Source of the DNA: Escherichia coli
GTDB lineage: Bacteria > Pseudomonadota > Gammaproteobacteria > Enterobacterales > Enterobacteriaceae
Length of the DNA stretch: 64,000 nt
Direction: 5' to 3' (one strand)
NCBI RefSeq assembly: GCF_003334305.1
Contig: NZ_QOWS01000009.1
The notes under the pieces were generated by a model, which was given only the letters and a program-made list of their open reading frames with translations, had not been told where the DNA came from and searched no databases. The position numbers and the translations under genes were made by a program. Of this stretch, positions 17,370-57,011 are shown piece by piece; position 1 is the first letter of the stretch, and every line of letters starts with the position of its first letter.

Positions 17370-17630
17370 TCTACTGTGGATAACTCTGTCAGGAAGCTTG
17401 GATCAACCGGTAGTTATCCAAGGAACAACGGTTGTTCAGTTTTTGAGTTGTGTATAACCCCTCATTCTGATCCCAGCTTATACGGTCCAGGATCACCGAT
17501 CATTCACAGTTAATGATCCTTTCCAGGTTGTTGATCTTAAAAGCCGGATCCTTGTTATCCACAGGGCAGTGCGATCCTAATAAGAGATCACAATAGAACA
17601 GATCTCTAAATAAATAGATCTTCTTTTTAA
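17370..17630. other. oriC: Chromosomal replication origin oriC: DnaA boxes R4 (17375-17383), R3 (17413-17421), R2 (17449-17457), R5M (17500-17508), R1 (17555-17563); AT-rich 13-mers R/M/L (17577-17620)
   Basis: TTATCCACA / TTATACACA 9-mers in canonical order and spacing, three GATCTnTTnTTTT-type 13-mers, dense GATC sites, position between mioC and mnmG. Confidence 0.93.
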
Positions 17631-27863: not shown

Positions 27864-28161
27864 ACGCGTGATCCGTCCTGAAGAGCGTTCACATAGATCC
27901 TGCTGATATAAAACACCCCTGTTTTCCCGTTTATTCATTGATCGAAATAAGAGCAAAAACATCCACCTGACGCTTAAATGAAGGTACTGCCTTAATTTTC
28001 TGCAGACAAAAGGCGTGACGATGGTCGAAAATGGCACTTTCGTCAGCGGGGATAATCCGTTATTGAACAATTTATCCTCTGTCCATTTCACGATGAAAAA
28101 AATGTAGTTTTTTCAAGGTGAAGCGGTTTAAATTCGTTCTCAAATTACAGTCAGGACGCGT

Positions 28162-54770: not shown

Positions 54771-55730
54771 TTATGCCATCGACGCGTAAAGGTTTTTAAT
54801 GGTTTCCCGTAACCAGACGATCTTCGGATTATGGCTGTTCCATTTATGCCACAGCAGGGTAAAAGGAACTTCCAGCTTTTTTTGCTGGCTTTCGTCAAAC
54901 GGGAGAGGAAGAGCAACCAACGGCAGTTGATGGAGTTGATTGTAGTACTGACAGTAGCGCGGCGCGGTCGCCAGTAGCAGATTGTCGGGTTGCGCTGCCA
55001 TAAACAGTGACTGCTCAAATTCCGGCAGGCTCATAGCAATCGTGCGTTCGCGCCCCAGCTCCTGTAACACATTGTCCAGCGCCCAGGTGTCGCTCTGTTC
55101 CCAGCAAATGCTGATATGCGGATAACGTAAAAAGGTGTCCAGATTCCACGTTTCATGCAGTGCCGGATGATCTTTGCGTAACCAGACGCAGGGTACATCA
55201 CTAAACAGCACTTCATAATCAATGGCTAACGGTAGCGAGCTTAACAGCTCCCGCGAGCGAGGATGGCTTTCGCGACCGGAAAAACCAATATCCACTTCAC
55301 CACGAGTAATGGCATCTAAGGAATCGTAATCCCAGTTACGTAGTTTGATGGTCGCCTGCGGGTAACGTTGGTAGATCCGTTTCGACAGCGCATTAAGCAT
55401 GATCATCATCAGCGGCGATTCCGCCGCCAACTCAAACTTCAGGCCGCGCGGTGTCTGGTGGTGCGGTTTATCCAGCAGCAGATTGCTCATTTGCATCCAT
55501 TCCGCCAGATTTTGCTCCATGCTGACCATTAGCGGTGTGGGCGACAGCCCCAGCGGTGAGTTCACAAAGAGCGGGTCGTCAAACCACGCTCTTAACTTTG
55601 CCAGCGACTTACTCACCGCTGAAGGGGTCACGTTCATCCGCTTCGCCGCTTTGGTCACGCTGCGCTCCTGCATCAGCAGTTGCAGACAGAGCAGCAGATT
55701 GAGATCAAGCGTGGTGATGGATTTCTTCAT
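54771..55730 (-). CDS. yidZ: LysR-family transcriptional regulator YidZ (319 aa)
   Basis: N-terminal LysR HTH ([25 protein letters not shown]). Confidence 0.88.
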
Positions 55731-56880
55731 GAGCGGCAACGGGGCGTCCAGGCGCGACGAACATAATCAGTAACAGGCTCACTATGCTACAGGCAATCAG
55801 AATCCCGATCAGCATATTCCATGCGCCGATACCAACCACCGCTGCCAGCCAAATCCACAGTGACGAACCGCAAACCTGCGCAATACCTAAGGTCGAGCTG
55901 GCTACGCCCGCGCGTAATGAAAATGGTCCTAACGCCTGACTCATCGCTACGCCAAAACCTACCGAGAAACCGGCGCAAATCAGCGTGATACCAAACAGAG
56001 AAACCGCATGGGAAGGTGAAACGGCAAGGGTGATCCCCGCCGCAAGGAATAACACCTGCGAGGTGATCATCAACGTACGTGGCTTAAAAATTCCCAGCGC
56101 AAATGGCGTGGAGAATGAAACGGTCATGCTGACGCCAGCGGTCAACGCCATAATGGTGGCGTATTCTCCGCGCTCAAAACCCATGATTTCCATCAGCAAT
56201 ACCGGCGATGTATTGACGAAAGTGAGGATCACCGAAACGCTGAGGGTGGTGATAACAACACGGCTGAGGAAAAACCGATTAAGCAGCGACTCGCTATTTT
56301 CTCGTGGTTTGTCCGAAGCAGCGGGGGACGCTGGGCGCGTTTCTTTTAAAATAAACAAAGATAACATCAGTACCGCGATGCCCATCATTGCCATCGTCCA
56401 GAACAGACTCTGCCAAGGGAATTTAAGCATAATCAGGTGTCCGAGCACCGGCGCTAACACCGGAATGATGCAGGTAATACCGTTGAGTAACGACAGCACT
56501 TTAGCCCGACGTCGATCATCCAGCGTGTCGCGCAAAATGGCGAACGCCACCACGTAACAACAGCCTGCGCCCAACCCCTGTAGAAAGCGCCCTGCAAGAA
56601 ATAACGTGCTGGTTTCAGCCAGTGAACAGAACACCGAAGCGATAATAAATAGCGCCGCGCCGGGGATGGCGACAGGCTTTCTCCCTGAACGATCGGCCAC
56701 TTTACCGGCAAATAACATCGCAGCTGCCATGCCCGCCAGATAAACGGAGAACGCAATATGCAACTGCGCTTCGCTGGCATTGAGATCGGCGGCGATGCGC
56801 GGTAAACCAACGAGGTACATATCAATCCCGGCGGGATAAAGTAAAACCAGGGCAAAACTACAAATTAAAAAGCGGGACAT
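55705..56880 (-). CDS. mdtL: MFS multidrug efflux transporter MdtL (391 aa)
   Basis: 12-[42 protein letters not shown]... Confidence 0.92.
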
Positions 56881-56976
56881 GGGCTAAAGCGTCCTGATAG
56901 TAAGGTGACGCAAAGCATACGTGGTGAAGGAGAATCAGGCGAGTTGCCATTTGGACATAAGTGATTTCCTGAGAGG

Positions 56977-57005
56977 CAAGAAGCCAGCGAATGGCTGGCT
57001 TCTTG
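56977..57005 (-). terminator. Hairpin downstream of tnaB (CAAGAAGCCAGC...GCTGGCTTCTTG); weak U-tract
   Basis: 12-bp inverted repeat 7 bp past the tnaB stop. Confidence 0.45.
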
Positions 57006-57011
57006 AAGGAT

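Follow-up and report, generated by a model that had tools for sequence, protein, structure and literature searches.

The Overlapping mdtL and yidZ Genes of Escherichia coli: Conservation, Context, and Possible Origin

The mdtL–yidZ Locus

The window (the whole 64,000-nucleotide stretch of E. coli DNA that was analyzed; RefSeq assembly GCF_003334305.1, contig NZ_QOWS01000009.1) carries mdtL and yidZ in tandem on the minus strand, with tnaCAB upstream of the pair and yieE–yieF downstream. The features discussed below have the following positions in the window.

55705..56880, minus strand: mdtL coding sequence, stop codon included, for an MFS multidrug efflux transporter of 391 aa (open reading frame list, RefSeq, and NCBIfam)
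54771..55730, minus strand: yidZ coding sequence, stop codon included, for a LysR-type regulator of 319 aa (open reading frame list, RefSeq, Pfam, and NCBIfam)
55705..55730, minus strand: mdtL/yidZ overlap of 26 nt, out of frame (direct reading of the sequence)
55728..55730, minus strand: yidZ ATG start codon, followed by AAR AAR (MKK), conserved
55705..55707, minus strand: mdtL TGA stop codon, spanning yidZ codons Leu8 (CTT) and Asp9 (GAT)
55737..55739, minus strand: alternative in-frame TTG upstream of the yidZ ATG, which heads the mechanically called open reading frame and is probably unused
55700..55760, minus strand: yidZ translation-initiation region, without a Shine-Dalgarno (SD) sequence, with unusually little RNA structure and an A-rich start (AUGAAGAAA)
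56881..57011, minus strand: tnaB–mdtL intergenic region, a gap of 131 nt from the tnaB stop to the mdtL start and the presumed promoter site for mdtL and yidZ

A 2.3-kb query over the locus is 100% identical to E. coli strain A7, and the RefSeq boundaries of both genes are the same in A7 and in K-12 MG1655. In the K-12 chromosome (NC_000913.3), mdtL (b3710) occupies 3891615–3892790 and yidZ (b3711) 3892765–3893724, with the overlap at 3892765–3892790. Gene order, strand relation, protein lengths (391 and 319 aa), and the 26-nt overlap all agree with those in the window; the sole difference is that the window shows the locus in reverse orientation. Of 5426 complete E. coli genomes, 5424 carry the junction at an identity of at least 95%, and the 2.3-kb query likewise matched 5424 of them.

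Each protein aligns with the curated model of its family over essentially its entire length. MdtL scored 716.8 bits against the MdtL family model NF007782 of NCBIfam (cutoff 417), with residues 1–391 aligned to profile positions 1–394 of 394, and YidZ scored 682.8 bits against the equivalog model NF007581 (cutoff 314), with residues 1–318 aligned to positions 1–318 of 319, so that each belongs to its family. In YidZ, Pfam identified an HTH_1 domain at residues 10–66 (E = 5.8e-14) and a LysR_substrate domain at residues 101–313 (E = 2.8e-15).

The overlap is genuine and already known, being present in RefSeq and in the curated K-12 record. A reading of the sequence alone had placed a 26-bp same-strand overlap of mdtL and yidZ at 55705–55730; these coordinates are exact, and the strand, which it left unstated, is minus. 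The first position of a yidZ codon is the second position of an mdtL codon. The shared bases read CAT GAA GAA ATC CAT CAC CAC GCT TGA (H E E I H H H A stop) in the mdtL frame and ATG AAG AAA TCC ATC ACC ACG CTT GA(T) (M K K S I T T L D) in the yidZ frame. A LysR regulator that lies downstream of its neighbor and overlaps it, rather than being divergently transcribed, is unusual.

The yidZ Start Codon

After residue 1 of yidZ, the next in-frame ATG, GTG, or TTG is that of Met20. Because the helix-turn-helix domain begins at residue 10, no yidZ start is possible past the mdtL stop. This is the arrangement that the sequence-only reading had named as the one contradicting an overlap, and inspection of the reading frames excludes it. 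The MKK start (ATG AAR AAR) is preserved in about 50 species and at every locus from Enterobacteriaceae, Hafnia, and Vibrio nereis. The upstream TTG at 55739 would, if used, lengthen the overlap to 35 nt; it does not occur in any genus other than Escherichia, nor in the Escherichia loci L004 and L005, and was rejected as the yidZ start. The TRAINSPOTTER N-terminomics supplements, in which an experimental yidZ start was sought, do not contain yidZ.

These observations bear on whether the overlap could be an annotation artifact, with the yidZ start called too early or the mdtL end lengthened by a sequencing error. Long overlaps are suspect in this respect, since all co-directional overlaps of at least 60 nt were mispredictions in the analysis of Palleja et al. 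(2008; PMC2478687). At 26 nt, the mdtL–yidZ overlap lies below that class. In the misannotated categories of the same study, the length of one partner departs from that of its orthologs; here, both proteins are full-length, aligning end to end with curated models, and the boundaries are conserved across genera. The position of HTH_1, the lack of any further in-frame start ahead of Met20, and the conservation of both the yidZ start and the mdtL stop, across genera as well as in 5424/5426 E. coli genomes, make an artifact a very remote prospect.

Overlap Length across Species

A scan of species-representative genomes gave 51 loci, which were then analyzed by local tblastn and frame tracing. In essentially all 51, mdtL lies directly upstream of yidZ on the same strand, an arrangement conserved as far from Escherichia as Morganella and Vibrio. 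The overlap is retained in nearly all of them and takes one of three lengths.

8 nt: Morganella and Proteus
26 nt: Escherichia species, K. pneumoniae, and Vibrio nereis
32 nt: Salmonella, Citrobacter, Kluyvera, the Klebsiella oxytoca group, Raoultella, Enterobacter, Yokenella, Pseudocitrobacter, and Hafnia

The differences can be traced to individual bases. Morganella and Proteus read ATGAATAA and ATGCATAA at the junction, and the TAA at +6..+8 ends mdtL. At the same place the Enterobacteriaceae read ATGAAGAAA, which holds no stop, and in the 32-nt form mdtL ends at a TAA across yidZ Leu10–Asn11 (CTT AAT). The 26-nt form results from a change that is synonymous in yidZ, because CTT rather than CTC at Leu8 creates the earlier TGA across Leu8–Asp9; species with CTC do not have this TGA. 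The 8-, 26-, and 32-nt forms differ by single-base changes, two of which are synonymous in yidZ, and the 26-nt form recurs in three lineages by way of the CTC-to-CTT change.

The exceptions among the 51 loci are three frameshifted assemblies, with one or both genes affected, and one insertion. In Proteus hauseri (L049:2760–2790), mdtL is split by a frameshift, and in Citrobacter koseri NCTC10786 (L042) and Kluyvera genomosp. 3 YDC799 (L048) mdtL and yidZ are both split; these may be real pseudogenes or assembly errors. In Enterobacteriaceae bacterium MGYG-HGUT-00110 (L013:1437–3036), the mdtL/yidZ junction is the exact site of a ∼1.48-kb insertion. The insert carries a minus-strand open reading frame of 382 aa, which has no match in NCBIfam, and is flanked by a direct repeat of ∼120 bp (85–91% identical) consisting of the mdtL 3′ end and the yidZ 5′ end. 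The junction is consequently present twice, and the insert keeps yidZ apart from the complete mdtL.

Variation in the Shared Bases

Per-position entropy was calculated over 46 distinct junctions from 46 species. In the 60 nt preceding the yidZ ATG (−60..−1), read in the mdtL frame, the mean entropies at codon positions 1, 2, and 3 are 1.0, 0.44, and 1.12. Within the overlap (+1..+24), read in the yidZ frame, the corresponding values are 0.40, 0.22, and 0.65, and the third position of mdtL codons is here the least variable (0.22). At the yidZ ATG, the periodicity therefore changes over from that of mdtL codons to that of yidZ codons. In the last 30 nt before the ATG, all mdtL codon positions vary, and this is the most variable part of the junction.

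Since variation in the shared bases tracks the yidZ frame, the data support a view in which these bases evolve as yidZ and the MdtL tail (the last 8–10 residues) would be a tolerated passenger. By the same reading, the HEE near the MdtL C terminus would be nothing more than the YidZ MKK codons in a frame shifted back by one base. The entropy at yidZ wobble positions is lower within the overlap than downstream of it (0.65 versus 0.99), which leaves room for some extra constraint.

Translation Initiation at yidZ

The 20 nt 5′ of the yidZ ATG pair with the anti-SD sequence at −3.0 kcal/mol, by way of a GGA ∼17–19 nt upstream. Among the 45 genes within the 50 kb of K-12 around the locus, for which the median is −5.8 kcal/mol, this value ranks 40th, and pairing is similarly weak in almost every species. 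The start is also unusually free of structure. The 131-nt junction folds more weakly than 198 of 200 shuffled sequences (z = +2.29). Across 29 species, a 61-nt window centered on the yidZ ATG has a mean minimum free energy of −7.1 kcal/mol, compared with −15.3 kcal/mol for other windows of the same locus; its median percentile is 0.02, and in most species no other window of the locus folds more weakly. A real SD sequence is present at two loci, those of Proteus hauseri (L049) and Enterobacter sp. (L033), both at −6.5 kcal/mol, and it is these that lack this open-start signature (percentiles of 0.51 and 0.50).

Scharff and colleagues reportedly described SD-independent initiation at unstructured starts in 2011. 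Initiation of the same kind is treated by Saito et al. (2020; PMC7043885), and the yidZ start resembles such open starts in being SD-less and A-rich and in lying within the least-folded window. It differs in being located within an upstream coding sequence, so that elongating ribosomes also cross it. De novo initiation at this SD-less, unstructured, A-rich start is likelier than coupling as the source of YidZ.

Termination-reinitiation would instead have ribosomes that end at the mdtL TGA move back 23 nt and restart at the yidZ AUG, tying YidZ output to that of MdtL. The conservation of the overlap is in keeping with this mechanism, as is the near-universal lack of an SD sequence at yidZ, a common trait of coupled downstream genes. 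The overlaps known for reinitiation, namely −4 (ATGA), −1 (TGATG), and −8 (NTGNNTGA) (Huber et al., 2019, PMC6728339; Huber et al., 2023, PMC10666635; PMC12548453), are likewise co-directional and out of frame with an SD-less downstream gene, and the Morganella and Proteus orthologs have the −8 form, an enriched spacing motif (PMC12548453). In these classes the stop and the start overlap or lie a few nucleotides apart (−4, −1, −8, or a very short gap), whereas the spacing is −26 in E. coli and −32 in most relatives, which falls outside the enriched classes and at a distance at which a reporter showed no coupling. According to the review (PMC12548453), raising the overlap from −4 to −25 nt strongly cut coupling, and none was left at −25, a result that comes from one synthetic reporter system in a field where the review notes inconsistencies between studies. 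Furthermore, the length toggles between 26 and 32 nt by synonymous changes, which argues that no particular spacing is kept, and an unstructured yidZ start can recruit ribosomes by itself. We consider reinitiation decidedly unlikely at this junction.

A second form of coupling depends on the unfolding of RNA structure that sequesters the downstream start. This is argued against because there is nothing at the yidZ start to unfold; in most species the start coincides with the weakest-folding window of the locus. Translational coupling of mdtL and yidZ is possible and not favored.

The relation of the two frames also raises the question of a programmed +1 frameshift in the overlap that would yield an MdtL–YidZ fusion protein. 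The yidZ frame is indeed +1 relative to that of mdtL and contains no stop codon in the 36 nt that precede the ATG. There is no conserved slippery or stimulatory sequence; rather, the junction varies most in the 30 nt leading up to the ATG, and the region is unusually unstructured. We know of no precedent for joining a membrane pump to a DNA-binding regulator in one protein, and the chance of such a product is negligible.

A more speculative proposal is that an SD-less, structure-free yidZ start placed 23–29 nt inside the mdtL frame is itself a regulatory device, with ribosomes translating the mdtL tail either occluding the start or feeding it. We regard this as improbable. If it were true, YidZ levels would follow the extent of translation of the pump mRNA, and selection on this interplay would account for both the lower wobble variation in the overlap (0.65 versus 0.99) and the invariant AUGAAGAAA.

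Transcription of the Pair

Because yidZ starts inside mdtL, no terminator can act between the two genes without truncating mdtL. A consensus scan of the gene strand found no promoter-like site within mdtL and no terminator-like site at the mdtL/yidZ junction; the lone promoter-like match on this strand lies just past the yidZ stop. The scan for promoters was strict and also missed the promoter of mdtL itself, with none called in the tnaB–mdtL gap, so its silence inside mdtL is weak evidence. Judged in silico as a candidate operon, the pair lies on the same strand with nothing promoter- or terminator-like between the genes. The default reading, and a likely one, is that mdtL and yidZ share a transcript that begins upstream of mdtL, with the promoter for both presumably located in the tnaB–mdtL gap (56881..57011). 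The sequence-only reading had taken the overlap to suggest co-transcription or coupling. Its first half follows naturally from the geometry, the conserved adjacency, and the lack of a predicted terminator or promoter at the junction; its second half, if meant as translational coupling, finds no specific support.

Neither mdtL nor yidZ is mentioned in the SMRT-Cappable-seq supplements (PMC6131387), and a text search of the literature for mdtL–yidZ or yidY–yidZ returned Salmonella genomic-island papers alone.

It could also be that yidZ is driven mostly by a promoter of its own in the 3′ part of mdtL, and the overlap would then be uninformative on operon structure. Promoters within upstream genes are common in E. 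coli. The locus with the 1.48-kb insertion (L013) has an intact yidZ on the far side of the insert, and yidZ may thus survive without an adjoining complete mdtL. The same yidZ still carries an attached remnant of the mdtL tail, however; the tight arrangement of the two genes is conserved in about 50 species, and mdtL holds no sigma-70-like site on the gene strand. We therefore think it unlikely that yidZ relies mainly on a promoter of its own.

Regulator Binding near the Locus

YidZ has been studied by ChIP-exo and is a regulator with 118 binding sites (PMC8464067). When b3710 was looked up in the YidZ ChIP-exo list (Gao et al., 2021), no entry for mdtL was found, as judged by the order of occurrences. 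Because this list is without an mdtL site, there is no sign that YidZ acts as a dedicated regulator of mdtL.

Strong ChIP-exo peaks in the supplementary tables of Gao et al. (2021) fall at one site in the tnaB–mdtL gap, at 56960–56984, with signal/noise values of 64.8 and 101.8. These positions were converted from NC_000913.2 3889534–3889558 under an assumed offset of +1977. The site is occupied by YfeC and at least one other, unrelated factor; YidZ is not among them. It may be a shared hot spot or part of the mdtL promoter region.

Origin and Consequences of the Overlap

The junction is the one already annotated, between two co-oriented genes that share 26 nt. Taken together, we consider it moderately probable that this pair lies on one transcript, with an overlap that is a by-product of stop loss, an MdtL tail that is a passenger, and a YidZ that is initiated de novo. 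Up to and including the yidZ start, mdtL meets no stop codon; translation of MdtL would therefore continue into yidZ, and this would account for the overlap. The run-on would end at the first out-of-frame stop that yidZ codon choice happens to set, either the TGA across Leu8–Asp9 (26 nt) or the TAA across Leu10–Asn11 (32 nt). In Morganella and Proteus, the TAA inside ATGAATAA or ATGCATAA brings mdtL to an end after only 8 nt. Single-base changes would suffice to turn one overlap length into another, and the stop loss may have run in either direction, from 8 nt to 26 or 32 nt or the reverse. An overlap of 8–10 codons is probably what chance would give for a run-on to the next out-of-frame stop, and the overlap would have no special function of its own.

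On this account, the two genes would be transcribed as a single unit from 5′ of mdtL. YidZ would be made at a low level suited to a regulator, by de novo initiation and not by ribosomes backing up 23 nt.

The process would resemble the loss or replacement of upstream stop codons treated by Fonseca et al. (2013; PMC3887535). The length of the mdtL–yidZ overlap is likewise set by the first out-of-frame stop in the downstream gene, and its 8-, 26-, and 32-nt forms interconvert by single-base changes. The comparative picture fits established ideas on the origin of co-directional overlaps and on the translation of SD-less genes.

The arrangement has practical consequences. Deletions or tags at the mdtL 3′ end hit the yidZ start, and edits within yidZ codons 1–9 change the tail of MdtL. 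Phenotypes ascribed to mdtL or yidZ, including those of the yidZ knockouts that define its regulon, should be checked for effects on the neighboring gene.

Other Features of the Window

The window contains another same-strand overlap, between rnpA (stop at 63643) and yidD (ATG at 63679), which spans 37 nt (63643–63679, minus strand) and is annotated in K-12 (3884816–3884852). Like the mdtL–yidZ overlap, it is conserved, annotated, and longer than usual; the genes are different ones.

Relative to K-12 MG1655 (L054), atpC lies ∼5.1 kb nearer to the mdtL/yidZ junction (compared window, ∼28000–55000), and it follows that the strain of the window is without ∼5 kb between yidZ and atpC. An Rfam hit (187.7 bits) to STnc410, an enterobacterial sRNA, lies at 27921–28078 on the minus strand, in the atpC–glmU gap and opposite in strand to both flanking genes.

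An exact oriC 13-mer, GATCTNTTTATTT, is present at 17608–17620 on the minus strand. At least one match occurred in 42 of 100 shuffles, so a single match is not significant; it is consistent with a replication origin in the window. A complete 16S rRNA gene lies at 15–1556 on the minus strand (Rfam SSU_rRNA_bacteria, 1576.8 bits) and is presumably the start of the rrnC operon.
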